A stretch of 64,000 bases of DNA. Origin: Felis catus. Taxonomy: Eukaryota. Below the pieces are notes generated by a model. The model saw nothing but the letters and a program-made list of their open reading frames with translations. It did no database searches and was not told the origin of the DNA. The stretch lies in the NCBI RefSeq assembly GCF_018350175.1, contig NC_058368.1, positions 32,180,001-32,244,000 on the forward strand. Direction: 5' to 3'. Below are positions 23,132 through 54,433 of this stretch, one piece after another. Position 1 is the first letter of the stretch, and every line of letters starts with the position of its first letter. The position numbers and the translations under genes are program-made.

Positions 23132-24334
23132 TTTTTCACGTGGTACATGGTAACACACAACGACGTGAATGTACTCCTTACCAAAGTATATATTTGGCTT
23201 GATCAGTGAGTGCTCAATGCTTGCTTCAGCTCATTGGAAATGTGGATAAAAACTAGATAAAAGCATTAATTCACCAAAATTGTTTTATGGGATTTAACAT
23301 ATAAATACAAGTTGATAATGTGATGTGATTATGCAGGTAAATGTTAGAAGTTAAAATTGGTGGTTGCTATCTGTTCTTTAGTTATTTTTTTCAAAATGGA
23401 AATGGAAAATTGAAGATACACACAAATGCAAAGGTGGAAGTTAAGCACAGATAGGACTTAAAAATTACAAAGAATGTGTTTTCAATTTGGTATCTGAGTA
23501 TAGGTTTGAAAAAATCCTGAGAGTTCCAGCACTTAATATATGTGAAATAACATCATAATGAGCCAAAATTGACCCTTAAGTAATATTAACTTTAACTTCG
23601 TAGTAAAGAAATAACAGACTACAAACAATTGTATTAGAATTGACTGCTACAATTTTTAAATGCTTATTTAAATTATTAATTTTGACAAGGCAATCTATTA
23701 ATATGAAAGAATTGGATTGTTGTGTGTTGAATGCCTAACCCAAAAAATCTAGGAATTTTTGTATTTTTATTAATTTTAACATTGAATGTTAGTAATTCTC
23801 ATTTCCATTTTTGAGGAATATATATTGAAATTCGAAGATATGAGGTCATACACTTTGTTACTAATAGAAACCAAGATTATTCTTCAAAGTCTGCACTTTG
23901 CACAATGTCACAATGTATGGAACATATTGGTGTACAGTCTTTTACTATAGAGATAACACTTGAGATAAATAATGAATGTGGGAATCCTTCCACACATAGG
24001 GCCCTTGAGCAGATATAATAAAAACCAAGTTGCTGTGAGTTGGTTGTTATTTTTTTTAACTTAGATTTGAATACTGTTCTCATCATTTCTAGACTCACTT
24101 TACTCCCTGGGTTCCAGTTCTCTACATGCCTTTATCACAGCAATCCCCATTTTATTCTAGTAACCTTTGAGAAAAAAAACCTCTTATACAATGCTATTCC
24201 ATTCTCCTCCTGTAGCTCATTTTTTCTATGACTTCCACAGCATAAAACCTGAAATAAATGATACTTATCAGAAATGGCTAGAAGGTCAGATATCATTCTA
24301 ACTAAATACCTATTTCTTTTTTAGGAATATGTGA

Positions 24335-24481
24335 TTTTTTTAATGTTTATTTATTTTGAGAGAAGTGAGAGATACAGCACAGGGGAAAGGCAGAGAGAGA
24401 GAGAGAGGGAGAGAGAGAATCCCAAGGAGGCTGAGTACTGACAACATAGAGCCCCACTCGGGACTGGATCTCAGGAACTAT
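24335..24481 (-). mobile_element. Can-SINE 3' portion, interrupted by an ERV LTR
   Basis: ttttttaatgtttatttattttgagag...gagagaatcccaag...ctggatctcaggaactat, then an abrupt switch to the LTR; SINE head absent. Confidence 0.85.
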
Positions 24482-24781
24482 TGTTACAGAACCAGACTGG
24501 AACGCTGACAGAAAACTATGCAGTCCTTGGACATCTTGGTGGATTGGAGATTTATTTAACATCAGCAGGCTCAGAGAAGACCGTTTCTCCAAAGATCTGA
24601 GCTCCAAATGCAAGTGGGAAGGGTAATTTACAGCGTCATCTTCCACATTCCTGGCGGCTTTCATGCATGTGGCAAACAGGGCAGGAAGAACCCGGAACAG
24701 TAGTCTCTAAGCTAGGAACTAGAGCTTGTTTTAGTCCCGTTGACCATCTTATGGTGTAAAACTTTATTCATTTTCCCAACA
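24482..24781 (-). repeat. ERV 3' LTR (300 bp)
   Basis: On minus: TGTTG...TAACA ends; AATAAA at 24551-24556; immediately preceded by the PPT. Confidence 0.85.
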
Positions 24782-24793
24782 TTCCCCACTTTG
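24782..24793 (-). other. Polypurine tract
   Basis: CAAAGTGGGGAA on minus, directly abutting the LTR TG. Confidence 0.8.
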
Positions 24794-24816
24794 ATGCCTT
24801 TTTAAAAAATCTTTTA

Positions 24817-26340
24817 TTAGGCATTACTTTTTAGCTCTAGGGGTTCATACCCTCGGAAGGCTAAGATACATGCTACAGTTTGTCAAGCAACAGTGTTTTC
24901 AATAAAACGTACTAGGGTATTTAGTATACAAGGGCCGATGGTCACAAGTAAAATTATGGAAAGGAGGGGCCCTGCCAGGGAAGGCAGCCAGGATGCCCAG
25001 TCTGTGAGATCCCATCCTCTCCGTTGACTGATATTTTCTTGTTGTCTATGTTGAATTCCTTCCTTGAGTTCCTTAACGTTAGTCATGACTATTCCTGACT
25101 GGTTTACAAAATAGCAACATTCCTCCTCCAGATAGATACAAGTCCCCCCTTTTTGAAGTGACGAGGTCAAGGGCTTTCTTATTTTGGAGGGACACTGCTG
25201 CCAGGGAGTTTATCTGGCTTTGTAAGGTTACCAGGGAGCCCACCACCCATTCCATTTCTTCATTTAGTTCTCAAGATAGTTTGTGGTATAGCCCTACAGA
25301 TGAACCTATGCCTCCTATTCCAGTTCCTATTCCCATTGCAATTCCTGCTCCTATCAGGACGGGTAGCAGGACTGCCCATTTAGCCCGGGACTTGGGGCTG
25401 AAGGCTGTTAGGAACTGATCCTCAGTGTATACAGATATTTCCAGAATTAGGACAATGGAATAGCACATCTGAGTCCATTTGGCATCCAAGCATCGGTAGA
25501 CCGAATTGGAGCACAGAGAGAATACCCCAGGGGTTGAACATAGGTTTGTATTCCTTTTCAAGGTTATATTTCTCCCACATAGGGAGGTGCTGTCCATACC
25601 CTCAGGGACCATACAAGTTAGATTGTCGGCATTGGTGAGATGGACCCCAGTGGCCAAGGGTCCAATCAAGACAGTGGTGTTGGTTGTGATGTTTTCAGGA
25701 GCTTCTCAGGCCAAGGAGATGGGAGTGGCTAAGTAAACCCTCGGACTGAGACGCAAGCATATCCAACAGGTGTGGGTGTGGTTATCCACTTTGTGGAGGA
25801 CTTGTAGGGTGGTGTTGGCCCAGCCTTGGAGCAGGGAAATGGTGAGCATTTGATTAAAGGCTGAAAGGTTAAAACCCTGTTAGGATGCCAGGGGAGTGGT
25901 TGCCTTTACGGCTTATATTAGCCTGGTCTGGGTATCCTTTCTGACTTTTTGAAGGGCCTTGTCTTGCACCCCTCCCCCGTCTGATGTCCCTTGTTGGGGA
26001 AGTTATGTACACTAGACTCACTTTCTTTTCTGGAGGCTTTGTTTGTTACATGGGCTCCTGCTATTTTGAGTTATTTCTACAGTCCAAAACTGATGTGGTT
26101 GGTCATCTGGCTATTAGCAGAGGGTGGGTGTCTTTCCCTTTAAGAATCTTTGTGGAGAGAGGTGAGGGAGCTGAACACCCTTGCATTCCTGATACCATGG
26201 GATACTGTCCTTATTGTCTTATAACAATCCTGGGGGCAAGGTGGGTATGTGGCAGTTGTGAGGGTGAGAGAGGTTAACATAACATACAGGCAATACTTAA
26301 TAGTCCTCCCATCCAGAGGAGGTGTGTGAGACCCAGCATG
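24817..26340 (-). pseudogene. env: Decayed retroviral envelope, HERV-W/syncytin-1-like (RDR-type)
   Basis: SDGGGVQD (25961-25984), CWIC (25757-25768), RAKW (mutated furin site), fusion peptide AVLLPVLIGAGIAMGIGTGIGG, ISD LQNKKALDLV, CIYLEEECC (CX6CC), TM helix, YEPL tail; several in-frame stops and frameshifts. Confidence 0.93.
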
Positions 26341-26529
26341 AATCTTTTGTCCCATGTCCAATTTGTGGGTGCAGTCTCTATTAGCCCAACAGCAAGAAGC
26401 AAGTAAGGGGCAGGGACTGGCAGAGTTGCATCTGAACCGCTGGGCTCGGTCTGCAAGTTGATTCCTCAAGCTTCTGCCTTGCTCAGGCCAGCCAACTTCT
26501 GGGGTGTGGCTCTAGCAGGGCTGGAGATC

Positions 26530-26958
26530 TCAGGGGCCAATGTCTTTTTTGAGGGTCAGTTTAAGTGGGTTGACTGGCTCTGGATCACTTCGCCAGGTTG
26601 AGGGTTCCTCTGAGTTGGCCTTCTTAACTCTGGAATGAAGGACCCATGGGGTGATACCTGAAACTTTAAGGATTGTAGGAGTTGTTAGAATAACAGTATG
26701 GGGCCCAGACCACAGTGGTTTAAGAGGTTTCCTCTTCTAATCTTTGACCCATATGGAATCTCCTGGCAAAAACGGATGAATGGGGGTCCCTAAAGAAATC
26801 GGGGCCCTTTCTGTGGTGTATCTTTGTAACTTATTTAGGACAGCCCCCAAGGCCTGAAGCTGTTCCCCTTATTTCCATATCTCCAATCTGGTGTAGATCT
26901 CCTGGGAGTTTTCCTAAGCATGGGGGAGGCCACCCATACAGTAACTCGAAGGGGAAGA
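26530..26958 (-). pseudogene. pol: pol integrase C-terminal fragment
   Basis: Manual translation: PFELLYGWPPP...QLQALG...IHPFLPGDSIWVKD*...WSGPHTVILTTPTILKVSGITPWVLHSRVKK; one stop and at least one frameshift. Confidence 0.9.
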
Positions 26959-29900
26959 ATTCTTCTTATGTTGTTTTATTTTTTAGTTGTTTTAAGAATT
27001 ATTTTCTCCTAGTTAATATTATTAACCAGTTTGGTTTTAGTTTATTGGAAGCAGTCATGTGTTAATGAAAAATTTGTTAGGTTGAGGACTTCCATCAATC
27101 TATTACAACTTGGCCTAATTTGGCATCTTCGTTTCGGTAATCTGGCTAGTGAACTAGAATATATTTTTACCATCATACTTATATGATATATAGTTCAAAA
27201 TTTCCAGTAACTTAATTCTGTACTCGAGTATATCTTTATAGTTTTATAGTACACACTTCAATCCATTTATTTTCTTTGTAGGTTTCTACCATTTATTCTA
27301 ACCTTTCTCAATTGACTTATAATATCTACTACTAAAGCCAGTTTTTGATTAAGGAAAACTGATATCCGTATTTGTTAAAATATTATTTCTTCTCTCCCCT
27401 ACTCTGTTCTCCCTAAAACATGTGGGCTCTTCATCAATCAGATGAATGCATCAACTTTCTACTTGGCTATAAGATAGATAAGACTTTCAAGTGAGTTTCA
27501 TATGATCCTTTCAAGAAGTTTCATTATCTTTCAAGAAGTCCCACAAAAACACCTAGCAAATCATGCATTCTCAGCTCTATTCCTTAAAGTATAGATATTG
27601 TGTAATGTCGATTGCTGATTGATTAAAAAAAAAAAAGAACAGAAAATCCAGACACTTCCAATTTATTTTTTTAAAGAACTCTTAAAAAGAGAATGAAATA
27701 AGATAAAGTATGTGCATTTTTTACCAGTATTTCACATATGTGAAAGATCTATAATTCACAAATGCCACAATTTTAAGTGAGTTATATGCAGGTGCATTCC
27801 ATGATTGAAGTAAGGCAGAAAGCTCTCAGCATTTTGAAAGGATTTATTTTTGTCCTCTACACTTTAACTCTGTTTCAATTCATTCCCAACTATATTTTCC
27901 TGGAGTTATTTACTTATTGATTTGGACTGAGTGTTTTGTTGGCAGGATGAACTGTATGAGGAAAAGGAATTCATACACTGTACCAGAATTTGGCACAATA
28001 TTTTTCTCTTTTGTATTGCTAACCGAATATAACATTGGATCAGAACTTGACTCCTAGTGGAATTAAAATAATAAGACTAGACCTCTAGTCATCAAATCCA
28101 GTGACATATAAACCATCCCATTACATAGTTTGTTGATTTTAAAGAACAAAACATTACAGCCCAGCCACTCTTCCCACTCTCTGGTGCTTTATCAGAACTT
28201 CTATCGTGAACACATTTTTTGTTTGTTTGTTTGTTTATTTGTTTGTTTGTAACTTGCTAGACGCAAGCACTTCTATGCTTTTGACAGTCAACTTGTGTTC
28301 TTTTTAATACCTCATTGATTAGAGCTCTTTGTCATCATTACTTCCTGTTTCATTCTGTTCTCTGAATTTTTTATTTAAGACCCATACTTTTAATTTGTGG
28401 ATTTCAGTATTTCATGGTGTGCCCTTAAGAATATAGCTGACAAAGCAGATGGAGGGATATTGGACATCTAGGAGGACAGATGTATTCAGTAGAATGCCCA
28501 GGATGACCACAAGCAACTAATTAGATCTCCTGTGGGGAATGTTATGCCCTTGAAATACTTTTATATCCTTGTTGTTTTAAAATCTTTAGAATAGAACTCT
28601 GACCCTTTATTGTGAGAACTAACTTTGAATACATACTCTACTTTTGAGAATGTATTTTGCAGAATGGGAGATGAATAGATCAGTCACGTTGAGAAGGATT
28701 TAATATCAAGGCTAAGGGTGAACTTTTAATTTATCTTAGTTTATCCTCATTTAATCAATTCAGGGCTATATGACAGCCTAAAGCATTAACTTTTTGAAGG
28801 CCAAATGAGTCATCTTGTAATGTCGGTTAAATCATGTTGATTGCTAAGGTCTGCAGGATTTAAAAATGAGTTTACTCTTTTTACACAAGATTTGTTTTAC
28901 TTCTCTATGTTACTTGAATCTCAAAGGAAATTAAAAATAAAAATAAAATAAAATAAAATATTCCTATTCTATTGCTACATATGAATTTGAATTTTACCTT
29001 CTATATCATTGTGTGGCAAAGACACAATGGAAGAACACAATGGAAGACTAGGCATGGCACAGGGTGGAAGCCATGCTCTCTGATGATTCTTTATTTTCAA
29101 TGCGAGAAAGCTGCATCTGGCTTATACATCACTAGTTTATTCTTCCCTGGTTTTCCAATCATATAAATTGTTTCACTTTCTTTGTTATGGAATAAAATGT
29201 GGAACAAGGTCATGAGTTTTTTCACTCTTGGATTTATTTGCATATATAAGAAAATATCAAGAGTAGGTAATTAATTTTCCCCCTAAAAATGGTGTTTCAG
29301 GTGCCTAAGAGGAGAGTCAATGTAGGTGTTGGGACAGTCAGGTCTGGCATTGAGATAAGTATGAGCTAGAGCTAAGTAGAAAATAGCAATAAAGATAAAA
29401 CCACATATGAAGATAGCATAGAATGATGCTAAAGTTAGGAAAATGGATGACATTGGTAATGATAGAACTGTTTAGATGGTTTCGAATTCAATTTTCTGCT
29501 TGCACATGCAAGGTTCCAACATAAAGTTTCAATAGAGCATTGCTTTCCCTCACTCCCCTATCACTCAGCATTCATACTTAAAGAATTGGCCACTGTGGAA
29601 AAGTATATGGAGTGAATGATTATATTAAAGGATATTTAATATAGGATATTAAAGGATATTTTATAATAACTTAAAATATAAATATTGAATTATTATACCA
29701 TCACAAACTCTAAATTAAGTGAGAATTAGAGTAAGACATCAGAGGGCTCCAGGTACTAGCAATGTCTTGATCCAGGGGGACAAGAATACATAATTTATTA
29801 TTGTCCCTGGAAGAGGGGAGAATTCATCTTACCTTTCTGCTCTTTTTTTTTTACCCAACTCGCGGTGAAATAAATACTCTTAATTGGCTCCCTTAGGCTG

Positions 29901-37842: not shown

Positions 37843-38263
37843 TTTTTCTTTTTTCAAATTTTTGTTTAAATTCTAGTTAGTTACCAAATAATGTAATATT
37901 GGCTTCAGGAGTAGAATTTCATGATTCATCACTTACGTGTAACACCCAGTGCTCATCCCAAAAAGTGCCTTCTTAATACCCGTCACCTCTTTAGCCTGTT
38001 CTGCCTCCAGGAACTCTCAGTTTGTTCTTTATAGGTAGAGTTTATGGTGTGCTTTTCTCTCTTATTTTTTCCTTCCCATATGTTCATCTGCTTTTTTCCC
38101 CTTAAGTTCCACATATGAGTGAAATCGTATGATATTTGTCTTTCTCTGACTGACTTACATCTTTTAGCATAATACACTCTAGCTCCATCCATGACATTGC
38201 AAAAGGCAAGATTTCATTCTTTATGATGGCTGAGTAATATCCTGTTGTGGGTATAAGTGTGTG

Positions 38264-38294
<31 letters not shown>

Positions 38295-39312
38295 GTATAT
38301 ATATACACAAGGATCAGCTCCTTGTGTATATATGTATATCCTTGTGTATATACGTACATATATATACATACACCACATCTTCTTTATCTGTTTATCAGTT
38401 GATAGACATTTGGGCTCTTTCCATAGTTTGGCTATTATTGATAATGCTGCTATAAACATCAGGGTGCATGTGCCCCTTTGAATTAGTATTTTGTGTCCTT
38501 TGGGTAAATGTCTACTAGTTCAATTGCTGGGTCACAGCATAGTTCTATTTTTAACTTTTTGAGGAAACTCCATACTGTTTTCCAGAATGGCTGCACCAGT
38601 GTGCATTCCCAACAATAGTGTAAGAAGTTTCCCCTTTTTCCACATCCTCACCAACATCTGTTGTTTCCTGTGTTGTTAATTTTAGCCATTCTGACAGGTT
38701 GAGGTGGTATCTCATCATGCTTTTGATTTGTATTTCCCTGATGATGAGTGATGTTGAGCATCTTTTCATGTGTCTGTTAGCCATCTGGATGTCTTTTTGG
38801 GAAAATGTCTATTCATGTCTTCTGCCCATTTAACTGTATTATTTGCCTTTGGGGGGTTGAGTTTGATAAATTCTTTACAATTTTTTTATACTATCCCTTT
38901 ATCAGATATGTCATTTGTAAATATCTTCTCCCATTCCATAGGCTGCCTTTCAACTTTGTTGTTTTCTTGGCTGTGTGGAAGCATTTTATCTTGACGAAGT
39001 CTCAATAATTCATGTTTGTTTTTGTTTCTCTTTCCTCCGGAGATGTATCTAGTAAGAATTTGCTGGCCAAGGTAAAAAAAGTTGCTGCCTGTGTTCTTCT
39101 CTAGGATTTTGATGGTTTCTTATCTCACATTTAGGTCTTTCATCCATTTTGAATTTATTTTGTGTATGGTGTAACAAAGTGGTTCAGTTTCATTCTTCTG
39201 TATGTCCCTGTCCGGTTTTCCCAGCACCATTTGTTGAAGAGACTATCTTTTTTCCTTTGAGTATTCTTTTCTGCTTAGTTGAATATTAGTTGACCACATA
39301 GCTGTGCTTTCA
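37843..39312 (-). mobile_element. 5'-truncated carnivore L1 with an internal (TA)-rich expansion
   Basis: ORF2 C-terminal peptides on minus ([33 protein letters not shown]); polyT; degenerate TSD ttagtatt/ttagcatt. Confidence 0.95.
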
Positions 39313-46130: not shown

Positions 46131-46434
46131 GGAAACATTTAGCAAAAGACAGCTTTTGTACCCAAATATTATAGACTGGAGAGCATTTTTTATTTTTTTA
46201 TTTTTATTTTTGAAGATTTACATCCAAATTAGTTAGCATATAGTGCAACAATGATTTCAGGAGTAGATTCCTTAGTGCCCCTTACCCATTTAGCCCATCC
46301 CCCCTCCCACACCCCTTCAGCAAACCTCAGTTTGTTCTCCATATTTATGAGTCTCTTCTGTTTTGTCCCCCTCCATGTTTTTATATTATTTTGTTTCCCT
46401 TCCCTTATGTTCATTGGTTTGGCTCTTAAAGTCC

Positions 46435-49400
46435 TCATATGAGTGAAGTCATATGATCTTTGTCTTTCTCTGACAGACTAATTTCACTTACCATAATACC
46501 CTCCAGTTCCATCCATGTAGTTGCAAATGGCAAGATTTCATTCTTTTTGACTGCCAAGTAATACTCCATTATATACATATACCACTTTTTCTTTATCCAT
46601 TCGTCAATCGATGGACATTTGGGGTCTTTCCATATTTTGGCTATTGTTGATAGTGCTGCTATATACATGGGGGTGCATGTGTCCCTTCAAAACAGCACAC
46701 CTGTATCCCTTGGATAAATGCCTAGTAGTGCAATTGTTGGGGCGTAGGGTAGTTTTATTTTTAGTTTTTTGAGGAACCTCCATACTGTTTTCCCGAGTGG
46801 CCACACATTCCCACCAACAATGCAAAAGAGATCCTCTTTCTCCCCATCCTCGCCAACATCTGCTGTTGCCTGAGTTGTCACTGTTAGCCATTCTGACAGG
46901 TGTCAGGTGGTATCTCATTGTGGTTTTGATTTTTATTTTCCTGATGATGAGTGATGTTGAGCAATTTTTCATGTGTTGGTTGGCCATCTGGATGTCTTCT
47001 TTGGAGAAATGTCTATTCATGTCTTTTGCCCATTTCTTCACTGGATTATTTGTTTTTGGGTGTTGAGTTTGATAAGTTATTTATAGATTTTGGATACTAA
47101 CGCTTTATCTGATATGTCATTTGCAAATATCTTCTCCCATTTTGCCGGTTGCCTTTCAGTTTTGCTGATTGTTTCCATCACTCTGCAAAAGCTTTTTATT
47201 TTCATGAGATCCCAATAGTTCATTTTTGCTTTTGTTTCCCTTGCCTCCAGAGAGGTGTCGAGTAAGAAGTTGCTGCAACCAAGATCAAAGAGGTTTTTGC
47301 CTGCTTTCTCCTCGAGGATTTTGATGGCATCCTGTCTTACATTGAGGCCTTTCATCCATTTTGACTTTATTTTTGTGTATGGTGTAAGAAAGTGGTCTGG
47401 GTTCATTCTTCTGCATGTCGCTGTTCAGTTTTCCCAGCACCACTTGCTGAAGAGACTGTCTTTATTCCATTGGATATTCTTTCCTGCTTTGTCAAAGATT
47501 AGTTGACCATAGGTTTGTGGGTCCCTGTCTGGGTTCTCTATTCTGTTCCATTGATCTAAGTGTCTGTTCTTGTGCCAGTACCACACTGTCTTCATGATTA
47601 CAACTTTGTAGTACAGCTTGAAGTCTAGGATAGTGACACCTCCTGCTTTGGTTTTCCTTTTCAAGATTGCTTTGGCTCTTCGGGGTCTTTTCTGGTTCCA
47701 TACAAATTTTAGGATTATTTGTTCTAGCTCTGTGAAGCATGCTGGTGTTATTTTGACAGGGATTGCATTGAATATGTAGATTGCTTTGGGTAGTATCGAC
47801 ATTTTAACAATATTTGTTCTTCCTATCCAGGAGCATGGAATCTTTTTCCTTTTTTTGTGTGTGTGTCTTCTTCAATTTCATTCATAAGCTTTCAATAGTT
47901 TTCAGTGTATAGATTTTTCACCTCTTTGGTTAGATTTATTCCTAGGTATTTAATGGTTTTTGGTGCAACTAAATGGGATCAATTCCTTGATTTCTCTTTC
48001 TGTTGCTTCATTGTCGGTGTGGAGGAATGCAACTGATTTCTGTGCATTGATTTTATATCCTGCAACTTTGCTGAATTCATGAATCAATTCTAGCAGTTTT
48101 TTGGTAGAATCTTTTAGATTTTCCATATAGAGTATCATGTCATCTGGGAAGAGTGAAAGTTTGACCTCCTCCTGGCATATTGGGATGCCTTTTATTTCTT
48201 TGTGTTGACTGATTGCAGAGGCTACGACTTCCAATACTATGTTGAATAATAGTGGCGAGAGTGGACATCCCTGTCTTGTTCCTGACCTTAAGGGGAAAGC
48301 TCTTAGTTTTTCCCCATTGAGGATGATATTACCGTTGGGTTGTTCATATATGGCTTTTATGATCTCTAGGTATGCTCCTTCTATCCCTGCTTTCTTGAGG
48401 GTTTTATTAAGAAAGGATGCTGTATTTTGTCAAATGCTTTCTCTGCACCTATTGAGAGGATCATATGGTTCTTGTCCTTTCTTTTATTGATGTGATGAAT
48501 CATGTTAATTGTTTTGCAGATATTGAACCAGCCCTCTATCCGAGGTATAAATCCCACTTGGTCGTGGTGAATAATTTTTTTAATGTATTGTTGGAGCCAG
48601 TTGGCTAATATCTTGTTGAGGATTTTTGCATCCATTTTCCTCAGGGAAATTGGTCTATAGTTCTCCTTTTTAGTGGGGTCTCTATCTGGTTTTGGAATCA
48701 AGGTAATGCTGGCTAACAGAAAGAGTTTGGAAGTTTTCCTTCCATTTCTATTTTTTGGAACAGTTTCAAGAGAATAGGTGTTAACTCTTCCTTAAATGTT
48801 TGGTAGAATTCGCCTAGAAAGCCATCTGGCACTGGACTCTTGTTTTTTGGCAGATTTTTGACTACTAACTCAATTTCCTTACTGGTATTGGTCTGTTCAA
48901 ATTTTCTATTTCTTCCTGCTTCAGTTTTGGTAGTGTATATGTTTCTAGGAATTTGTCCATTTCTTCCAGATTGCCCATTTTATTGGCATATAATTGCCCA
49001 TAGTAATCTCTTATCATTGTTTTTATTTCTACTATGTTGGTTGTGATCTCTCCTCTTTTTTCCTTGATTTTATTTATTTGGGTCCTTTCGTTTTTCTTCT
49101 TGATCAAACTGGCTAGTGGTTTATTAAATTTGTTAAATCTTTTAAAGAACCAGCTTCTCGTTTGATTTATCTGTTCTTTTTTTTTTTTTTTTTTTTGGTT
49201 TTAATAGCATTAATGTCTGCTCTAATCTTTATTATTTCTTGTCTTCTCCTGGTTTTGGGTTTTATTTGCTGTTCTTTTTTCCAGCTCCTTAAGGCATAAG
49301 GTTAGGTTGTGTATCTGAGATCTTTCTTTTTTCTTTAGGAAGGCCTGGATTGCTCTATACTTTCCTCTTATGACCACCTCTGCTGTGTCCCAGACATTTT

Positions 49401-51271: not shown

Positions 51272-53455
51272 TTTGAAGGGAGGAAATGAATTAATGAGGT
51301 AGAAAACTTAAAATTAAAAAATTAAAATTTAAAAAACATTAAAATTAAAAATTAAACACACACACACCACACACACACACACAAATCGTATAGATGATGC
51401 TAGATCCTAGGTGTGTTTCGGTTTGGGTGTTGAAAGTGTTTTGACAGATTAGAGAAAAAAAAACAGGGGGGAGAAAAAAACAAAATTGTTTGATAATTTG
51501 AAAAAATGAATACACTGAAGTAGACTAAAATGAGATGATGGTGGTAAAATAGAATGTTAAAAAATATACACAAAAGTAAAGAATGTAGGAGAAAAAATTA
51601 AAGAAAAATATTTTTAATAAAAATTAAAAATAAATATGAATCTTTTCGTTTTCTGTATTTAAGAAAAGAGAAAAGAAACGAAAAAGAGAAAAAAGAAAAA
51701 AAAAGAAAAAAGACACCATTTGAAAATTTGAAAAAGTGAATACACTGTAGTGGACTAAAATAAAATGATGGTAATAAAATAGAATTTGAAAAAATTGACA
51801 TAAAAGCAAAAGATATAGTAATATGAATTAAATAAAAATATTTTAATAGAAATTGAATGTAAAAATGAAGTTTTTCTTTCTGCATTCAAGAAAACGAAAA
51901 GAAACAAAAAAGAAAAAAGGAAAAGAAAGAAAAAAAGGAAATTGTTTGAAAATTTGAAAAAGTGAGTACACTGAAGTGGACTAAAATAAAATGATGGAAG
52001 TAATGTAGAATTTGAAAATTTTCACACAAAAATTAAAAATATAGTAATAAAAAAGAAAGGTATTTTTAGTAAAAATTGAAAATAAAAATGAATTTTTCTC
52101 TTTCTGTTTTCAAGAAAAAGAAAAGAATTGTAAAAGAGAAAAAGGAAAAAGGAAGAAAATTGAATAGATGAACCTGCTAACAGATTGAAGTAGGACTGAA
52201 ATTGCTTTGTTTTCCCCCAGAAGTCACTCTATATAGCTCTTTATAGTCCATAAATTAAGCCAGTGGCGAGACTTGTCTTCTTGAAGAGTGAAGTTGGCCC
52301 AGTTGGGCGTGGCTCAGTCTAATGGCCCCGTTCTCCACCAGATGGTACTGCTAGCCTACTTGGGTGGATTGTTGTGGTGCTGGTAGGTGTGTATGCGCAT
52401 GTGTGTGAGTGGTGAAAATGGCGCCACCCAGCTACCCAGTCTGTTTTCCCGGATCAGCAATCGCCCACCCGTCCTCTGTCTTCACCTCTCGTCCACTCCC
52501 TGCTTTTTCACTTTGCGTGACCAGGCCCCAGGCAGTACCTCTCTCCCTAGTTTTGTCTCAGATGAGGCTGTTTTCCTCGGCTTCTTACTTCTGAAGGACT
52601 GTGGCTTTGACCCCTTCCATCCCTCTGTGGGAAGGTCTCACCAAGCAATGGCCAAATGAGCAATGCCCGAATATCAGCTGCACCCAGGAATGCCCCCTGG
52701 ACCTTGTTGTTGCTGGTGCCCTGAGACTGTGGCCAGGTGCCAGCCCACCCCAAAAAAATTCTCGAGACAGTGTAGCAGCAGCTTTTCAGGGATTATGGAA
52801 AATCACAACACACATCTGGCACCAGGCTTCACCCTTAACGACCTTGTTCCAACACCAGCAAATGTGGCCATTTTCTGGGATCTGCTGGGACCAGGTGGCT
52901 TCAACAGTCTCAACCAAATGTCCTTCAAGCAGTGGAACCGCTCTTCCCCATGTGGCCCAAGAACCTCCCGGATCCCACTCTGCTCCTGGGGATTCACCCT
53001 TCGCACCAAAGTACTGCCAGGTATCGAGATGCAGAGTTGGAGCCTTTGTGCTCCCCTTGTTTACAGTCTTAATTGAATGTAAACCCTCTTCTTTCTCCTT
53101 TCTCCCTTTTTAGTTTAGTCCCTGTGGCTGTTTCCAATTTTCCAGTTTCTCTCCAGCTGCTTTTGGAGAGGGGTGCTTTTCCCATATTCCCCCCCAACCC
53201 CAGTCTCTGTCCTCTCTCTGCCCGCAAAAGCAGTTCCCTACCTTCTGCAGCTTCTTGCTCCCCAAGTTCAGCTCTCCACACTGTGTACCTGCTGAATTCT
53301 GTGGTTCAGGTTGTGCAGATTGTTGTGTTAATCCTCCAATCAGTTTTCTAGGTGTGTAGGATGGTTTAGTGTGGGTCTGGCTGTATTTCATGGATGCAAG
53401 ACACACAAAAAGCTTCCATGCTGTTCCACCATCTTGGCTCCTCCCTGGAAAGCAC

Positions 53456-53652: not shown

Positions 53653-53836
53653 AAAGAAGTTCATTTTCCAAAAGAAAATTTTGGAATGGAGGGACTAAAA
53701 ATAATAAATAATGAGAGCTCATTAGAAGTTCATGAGTTATGAACTCATGAAGTTATGAGAAGCTCATAAAGAAGTTCATTTTCCAAAAGAAAATTTTGGA
53801 ACGGAGAGACTAAAAATAATAAATAATGAGAGCTCA
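53653..53836. repeat. 69-bp direct duplication with a palindromic spacer
   Basis: Units 53653-53721 and 53768-53836 differ at 2 positions. Confidence 0.92.
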
Positions 53837-54433
53837 AATGTTGTACATAATTTAACCTACAATTCTGAAATTATACTTTGGAAAATTCTCTATTTAGGTT
53901 AAGAATTTTTGACAGAGCTACTTTTTCAATTTATATAAGTTTATATTCTGCATCAGATAAAGTAAATTTCTGGAACCTACAATGTGAAAAATACAACTAA
54001 TTTGAAAAGATTTGGTGTGTACAGTATTTTTGGAGGAAGATAATCTGAATAAAGACAAAGCATGGCGGTTAAAAATTATATCTTTCAATATAAAACTTAG
54101 AGTGGAAAAATACCCTGATTTAAACAAAATTTGCTCTGAACAGTCAGCAACTGCAGGTGAAGTAATTCTTTTTTGCAATCAAAAATAGAAAAAAGAAACA
54201 ATTTAAGGTAAAAATAAGTCTAACCAAAATATGCAACACAGTAACTGAACATAATTTTATGGAAAGTTATAAAAAAGGCCATATATAAAATAATATTTTT
54301 AATTAAAATATTAATGATATAGCATGAGAAATAGATGCATCTATGGAGCTAATTAAATACATGACTACTAAATATTTGTGCTATGTAATTATAAGTAGAA
54401 GAATTTTTAAATTTTCTTTCAATATTTGCATGA

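Follow-up and report, generated by a model that had tools for sequence, protein, structure and literature searches.

The window analysed here, a stretch of 64,000 nucleotides (64 kb) from the domestic cat, carries on its minus strand what is probably the remnant of a feliform class I endogenous retrovirus (ERV) whose envelope protein (Env) falls in the ERV-W-like part of the RDR group, whose likely means of entry was an ASCT transporter and whose env was probably gained by recombination, the copy at hand having lost its 5' part and decayed. The element spans ~26,960 to 24,482, beyond the interval 24817..26340 singled out in the initial annotation. It is a 5'-truncated dead provirus, consisting of an integrase tail, an env gene with stops and frameshifts, and a single 300-bp LTR (Table 1).

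Table 1. Parts of the proviral remnant and the adjoining host repeat, in window coordinates.
Feature	Positions	Strand	Evidence or remarks
3' end of pol: integrase linker and C-terminal domain	26533..26962	-	Pfam MLVIN_C, E 2.2e-18
pol-env junction, signal-peptide-like hydrophobic stretches, start of SU	26150..26532	-	frame-broken; first Cys pair at 26241
Rest of the receptor-binding domain (RBD), single-domain (syncytin-1-size)	25952..26161	-	five stops; 43% to dog ERV-Fc1 env
RDR motif SDGGGxxDxx, last residue L, not R	25952..25984	-	
CWIC (CXXC) isomerase motif of SU	25757..25768	-	
C-half of SU, non-canonical furin site, fusion peptide, heptad repeat and ISD, in one frame	25163..26002	-	four stops
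Remaining TM: CX6CC, membrane anchor, short cytoplasmic tail	24817..25155	-	after frameshift near 25,150
Polypurine tract	24782..24803	-	
3' LTR, complete, 300 bp	24482..24781	-	TGTT...AACA ends; AATAAA at 24556
SINE piece (presumably a carnivore SINE), 5'-truncated; host repeat, not viral; adjoins the LTR	24310..24478	-	SINE similarity

Everything 5' of ~26,960, i.e., gag, reverse transcriptase (RT) and the 5' LTR, is missing, and the element starts abruptly inside integrase. Inspection of the sequence upstream of the element revealed neither gag nor RT, self-BLAST disclosed no second LTR in the 64-kb window, and Rfam gave no match. The integrase piece, which also matches the MLV integrase structure (E 4.1e-16), is interrupted by a stop at 26739 and a frameshift near 26,870. 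One candidate for the env start codon is the ATG at 26355; the terminal stop of env occupies 24819-24817 and leaves a short cytoplasmic tail in common with bat envs. Since the LTR is complete, the element appears to have integrated in the normal way and to have lost its 5' part by a later deletion, and an origin as an L1-made retrocopy was ruled out on the same grounds. The SINE piece next to the LTR (24310-24482) lacks its own 5' end and is 67-69% identical to three other SINE copies within the window; the provirus may have been inserted into an older SINE, the other half of which was lost with the 5' deletion. On the minus strand at 26290-26430, two hydrophobic stretches lie in different frames ahead of mature SU, and the first of them is also present in P0224, a relative of the same family; they might represent an extended signal region or else the leftover of a replaced env.

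Elsewhere in the window, two copies that we take to be LINE-derived (38094-39296 and 46418-47509), ~80-88% alike, are separated by 8.2 kb. A unit of ~228 bp is repeated three times in tandem at 51435-52058, and a 115-bp duplication is found at 53653-53854.

Decay of the element is extensive. From 26161 downwards the env pieces hold 10 internal stops, five of them in the receptor-binding part (26116, 26113, 26020, 26014 and 26005), four in the frame of the SU C-half and TM (25915, 25882, 25708 and 25273) and one in the TM remainder (24885), together with two frameshifts, near 26,150 and 25,150. This copy makes no Env; it is dead and has no function of its own. With these stops and frameshifts in place of an intact, conserved open reading frame, the window copy was rejected as a syncytin, i.e., a co-opted env. 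None of nine family sequences that were parsed for the furin site (two more were left out) has a canonical one, and the site is non-canonical in the window copy as well. An AlphaFold model of P0001 had a mean pLDDT of 37 and was unusable.

In gamma-type Envs, SU binds the receptor, the disulfide between CXXC and CX6CC isomerises, and TM fuses the membranes. The corresponding hallmarks lie on the minus strand in the order SDGGGVQD, CWIC, fusion peptide, ISD and CX6CC. All of the peptides quoted in the initial annotation are present there: SDGGGVQD at 25984-25961, the longer string at 25990-25952, and CWIC, which starts at 25768 and does share its frame with the fusion peptide and ISD of TM, as had been claimed. 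The ISD (LQNKK, at 25189) is in the CWIC frame and CX6CC, from 25140, in another. A six-frame search of the 64-kb window gives a single occurrence each of SDGGG and LQN[RK][RK]. CWIC follows DGGG by 71 codons, as compared to 70 residues in syncytin-1. The first Cys pair of the window env precedes DGGG by 87 codons, and DGGG is found at residue 116 in syncytin-1 and at 178-196 in the D-type and REV references, so that the receptor-binding domain of the window env, judged by length alone, is of the single-domain kind. A single-domain RBD is described for syncytin-1 and its close relatives, and a duplicated one for extant RDR viruses, in bioRxiv 2024.03.17.585361. What may be remnants of the three RBD cysteine motifs taken from PMC1524976 (PCXC, CYX5C and CX8-9CW) lie at matching places, but they are degraded, and stops and a frameshift divide them.

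The same study (PMC1524976) describes an 18-residue region with SDGGGX2DX2R as essential to ASCT2 binding; the motif mutants in the cited passages are of Asp, and the final Arg is not among them. The full motif does not occur in the window, where the terminal residue is L in place of R, just as the initial annotation had it, and no family sequence that we have seen ends in R: the residue is L in six of them (the window copy, P0032, P0054, P0226, P0228 and P0340) and F in P0014. Outside the family, four canid Fc1 sequences have G at this position and the bat envs P0214 and P0205 have L. The terminal L is thus a family trait rather than decay of this one copy, and the departure from R is lineage-wide rather than unique, since L or F recurs across the family, G in canids and L in bats.

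A 280-residue read-through of env, with X at each of its four stops, has syncytin-1 as its best solved-structure match, end to end (E 5.9e-54; syncytin-2, 2.6e-17), and the two env pieces match Pfam TLV_coat at E 4.5e-26 and 8e-22. Because of the end-to-end match and the Pfam hits, the env assignment is not a matter of chance. The homology to syncytin-1 and the trees below place the window env, as far as sequence can tell, in the RDR (ASCT) group, and by that homology an ASCT transporter (SLC1A4/5) was fairly likely the means of entry. Bit scores of the window env over SU and TM are 189 for syncytin-1 (identity 41%, 282 aa aligned), 140-147 for the W-like envs of dog (35% over 287 aa), bat and panda, 82-92 for the RD114-like, REV-like, MPMV and lion D-type envs, and 50-59 for seven envs of FeLV/MLV type. 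Among the references, L003 was matched to MPMV by its TM sequence in the PDB and L007 to the FeLV RBD, and we take the labels RD114, GALV and MLV to be correct. The affinities differ from region to region. The RBD remnant is nearest to the dog ERV-Fc1 env (43% over 67 aa, E 4e-12; bat env, 35%), the C-half of SU to syncytin-1 (35%, vs 29% for dog and 26% for bat), and the C-half of TM with the tail, outside the family, to bat envs (61% over 111 aa; syncytin-1, 47% over 89 aa). This split may reflect mosaicism or uneven rates.

For the pol backbone, 80 residues of the integrase tail were compared. A Harlequin-type sequence from the supplement of PMC4724089, aligned by eye and without gaps, shares 41 of the 80, FeLV 39, eight other gamma-type references 31-36 and MPMV 21. 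The single ERV-Fc reference, P0086, shares 30 of 80; we assign it to bat ERV-Fc from the match between its env and the one given for bat ERV-Fc in PMC4798954. From these counts, a backbone of ERV-Fc type seems unlikely, and one of HERV-E type is favoured on the thin margin of 41 over 39 residues for FeLV. The pol of HERV-W ends differently. We lean towards the view that recombination brought the env to a HERV-E/Harlequin-like backbone that was neither ERV-Fc nor, apparently, ERV-W. The pol-env junction sequence of the window recurs in the family copies P0224 and P0226, and in P0224 it is joined to a family TM; since P0224 carries both, the linkage of this pol end with this env is a family trait. 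No longer pol relatives were found among 129 candidates.

The element belongs to a family. Nineteen of the 359 proteins that we collected match the C-half of SU at 50% or more over at least 40 aa (51-79%), although they are mostly short fragments and some may represent the same locus; the next best match over at least 100 aa is syncytin-1, at 35%. A HMMER search of representatives gave 320 matches, 150 of them among the matches listed, and one with P0157 gave 133, with 120 among the matches listed. The open frame of P0157, a 345-aa UniRef entry from Felis catus, extends from mid-SU to the end of TM; the entry shares 73-75% identity with the window. The label "felid" given to the family at the outset proved too narrow: a 90-aa piece from the spotted hyena, Crocuta crocuta (P0245), falls inside the family clade (97/94 and 86/89 in two trees), on a long branch. 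With relatives in both domestic cat and spotted hyena, the family appears from its sequences to be multi-copy and feliform rather than felid-only. The nearest named protein and the presumed SINE type likewise point to a feliform host. The hyena piece is part of a ketoacyl-CoA thiolase gene model containing a family TM piece; the model has probably taken in an intronic copy by a prediction error. Nine relatives compared in pairs are 83% identical at the median (36 pairs, 69-94%). If decay has been neutral, this would correspond to about 4% nucleotide change per copy, with 7-8% for the window copy, and to a rough family age of ~15-40 million years, at a range of rates taken in part from PMC4373062 (2.3e-9) and with relatives that are biased to long frames. 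Twenty runs, drawn from 11 studies and no fewer than two coded organisms, contain 65-74% of the sampled words; this would be consistent with a fixed locus common to related species. Scans of viral contigs with P0001 and P0157, and of metagenomes with P0157, brought up no relative.

In phylogenies of Env, the family falls within the W-like group with support of 100/98 (SU+TM, 30 rows), 100/100 (SU+TM, 19 rows) and 93/90 (TM only), and forms a clade of its own at 97/94, 100/99 and 100/100 in three trees and 86/89, unstarred, in the TM tree. An untrimmed row (P0218) and several long branches of the 30-row tree were dropped for the 19-row tree; ERV-Fc rows, which in the first tree formed a long branch within the W-like side, were left out of later ones, and syncytin-Car1 was not among the references. 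The TM phylogeny proposed in the initial annotation as a check does place the family outside RD114 and FeLV, and it also places it with canid and panda ERV-Fc1 envs and bat envs (96/95), with HERV-W outside. The earlier assignment to an ERV-W-type env rather than RD114 or FeLV env stands, then, as regards a W-like env distinct from the latter two, and is doubtful as regards ERV-W itself. The placement of the family inside the W-like group differs between SU and TM.

Of the other origins that might be considered for this env, an RD114/ERV-DC/D-type or FeLV-type one has next to no probability. SDGGG is held in common, and felid D-type-like RDR envs are labelled "syncytin-1-like" in NCBI, but AU tests reject a grouping of the family with RD114/D-type/REV (p 0.0004, 1.8e-5 and <1e-10) and with FeLV/MLV/GALV (p 0.003 in the TM tree; p 0.057 in an earlier run that held a mis-cut GALV-like row, 20% filled), identities are 24-31%, and the RBD is of single-domain length. 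It is also unlikely, though less so, that we are dealing with a true ERV-W-group provirus of carnivores, in which W-type pol and env travelled together without recombination. Such a provirus would agree with the C-half of SU (35% to syncytin-1) and with the best SU+TM tree (19 rows), where the family stands beside HERV-W at only 77/72, but would not agree with a TM that groups with Fc1 and bat envs (96/95) and weakly rejects sistership of family and HERV-W (AU p 0.032), with a short tail that matches bat envs, or with an integrase tail that matches Harlequin and FeLV/MLV types. The SPRE core, an ERV-W marker (PMC8579622), is likewise absent near the 3' end of env, where no match was found with up to 3 mismatches allowed.

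That the family is a feliform offshoot of the ERV-Fc1 chimera already described, which combines an ERV-Fc backbone with a W-like env, is more doubtful still. The receptor-binding part and TM are indeed nearer to dog and panda ERV-Fc1 and bat envs than to syncytin-1, and a grouping of family, Fc1 and bat envs is not rejected in SU+TM (19 rows, p 0.17). Against this, the family and the dog/panda ERV-Fc1 envs are separate clades (100/99 each, 30-row tree), identity to the dog env is only 35%, the integrase residues shared with bat ERV-Fc are 30 of 80, and the cited passages of PMC4798954 name panda, dog and ferret as carriers of ERV-Fc1, with the cat carrying ERV-Fc2 only. That some locus of the family is a co-opted gene, whether syncytin-like or restriction-factor-like, is very improbable: the domestic-cat P0157 keeps its 345-aa frame over the C-half of SU and all of TM, yet it lacks a signal peptide, the receptor-binding part and a canonical furin site, the window copy is full of stops, and most family sequences are short fragments.

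In the reading that we prefer, the Env of the exogenous parent would have been gamma-type, from the ERV-W-like branch within the RDR group, with a single receptor-binding domain ending in SDGGG, SU and TM linked by a CXXC/CX6CC disulfide, and class I fusion. The parent virus would have entered cells through ASCT1/2 and acquired its env by recombination; the family would then have spread in feliforms by reinfection and decayed, the window copy integrating normally before the loss of its 5' part and its own decay. A more elaborate version, which we regard as tentative and rather less likely than its opposite, would have a HERV-E-like backbone capture an ERV-W-like env independently, as part of a radiation in laurasiatherians of single-RBD RDR envs that lost the final Arg, comprising the feliform family, caniform ERV-Fc1 and horseshoe-bat envs; the env itself would be a mosaic in which an Fc1/bat-like RBD and TM surround a syncytin-1-like C-domain.

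With syncytin-1 and the HERV-W env, the window env has in common SDGGGxxD, CWIC, CX6CC and the size of a single-domain RBD; unlike HERV-W, the window copy is dead, its motif ends in L, its tail is short and bat-like, it is without the SPRE core, its TM does not come out as sister in the TM tree, and its pol end is apparently not of the W type. ERV-Fc1, or CfERV-Fc1(a), of dogs, ferret and panda is likewise an ERV of carnivores in which a class I backbone carries a W-like RDR env of foreign origin, with a TM in the same supported group and a motif without the final R (G in dog), whereas the window family is a separate env clade (33-35% identity) on an apparently non-Fc backbone in a feliform host, and is older and decayed. 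The Rhinolophus ferrumequinum "syncytin-1-like" envs (P0205, P0214 and P0215) resemble it in the C-half of TM and the tail, and the motif of P0214 and P0205 also ends in L, but they are only 26% identical in the C-half of SU and group with ERV-Fc1 envs in SU+TM trees. That the bat W-like envs share the short tail with the window family and yet group with ERV-Fc1 in SU makes a bat-carnivore exchange possible. RD114, MPMV, REV and felid D-type-like envs share the RDR motif and gamma-type TM and differ in their duplicated RBD length. HERV-E and Harlequin have a colinear integrase linker and C-terminal domain but carry an unrelated env. The NCBI label "syncytin-1-like" is misleading for P0185, P0187, P0041 and P0186 (lion, jaguar and two lynx species), which have the full motif and, as RDR envs of D-type-like rather than W-like kind, form the sister group of dolphin envs (100/99).

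ERV-Fc1 with an ERV-W-like env is described for dog, ferret and panda in PMC4798954, the cited passages of which give the cat only ERV-Fc2 and only a canonical ERV-Fc env. A canid env with CWIC, CX6CC and a putative RDR motif appears in PMC6407205, and repeated swapping of RDR envs in PMC9967133 and PMC10536682. PMC4133949 and PMC4373062 define their felid class I families or lineages, 42 and 11 respectively, by pro/pol, so that a match to them would require RT, which this copy lacks. In the literature covered, mostly open papers and with repeat libraries outside its scope, we found no description of a feliform ERV with a W-like env, and the family has probably been catalogued as a repeat already.

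The ERV-W-like envs on record for carnivores are those of caniforms (ERV-Fc1), to which the window family adds feliforms and an apparently different backbone. It is one more data point for the known swapping of RDR envs, a gain limited to paleovirology, and it indicates that the final Arg of the motif is variable across whole lineages. It also suggests that the ancestors of cats were under ASCT-receptor pressure long before RD114.
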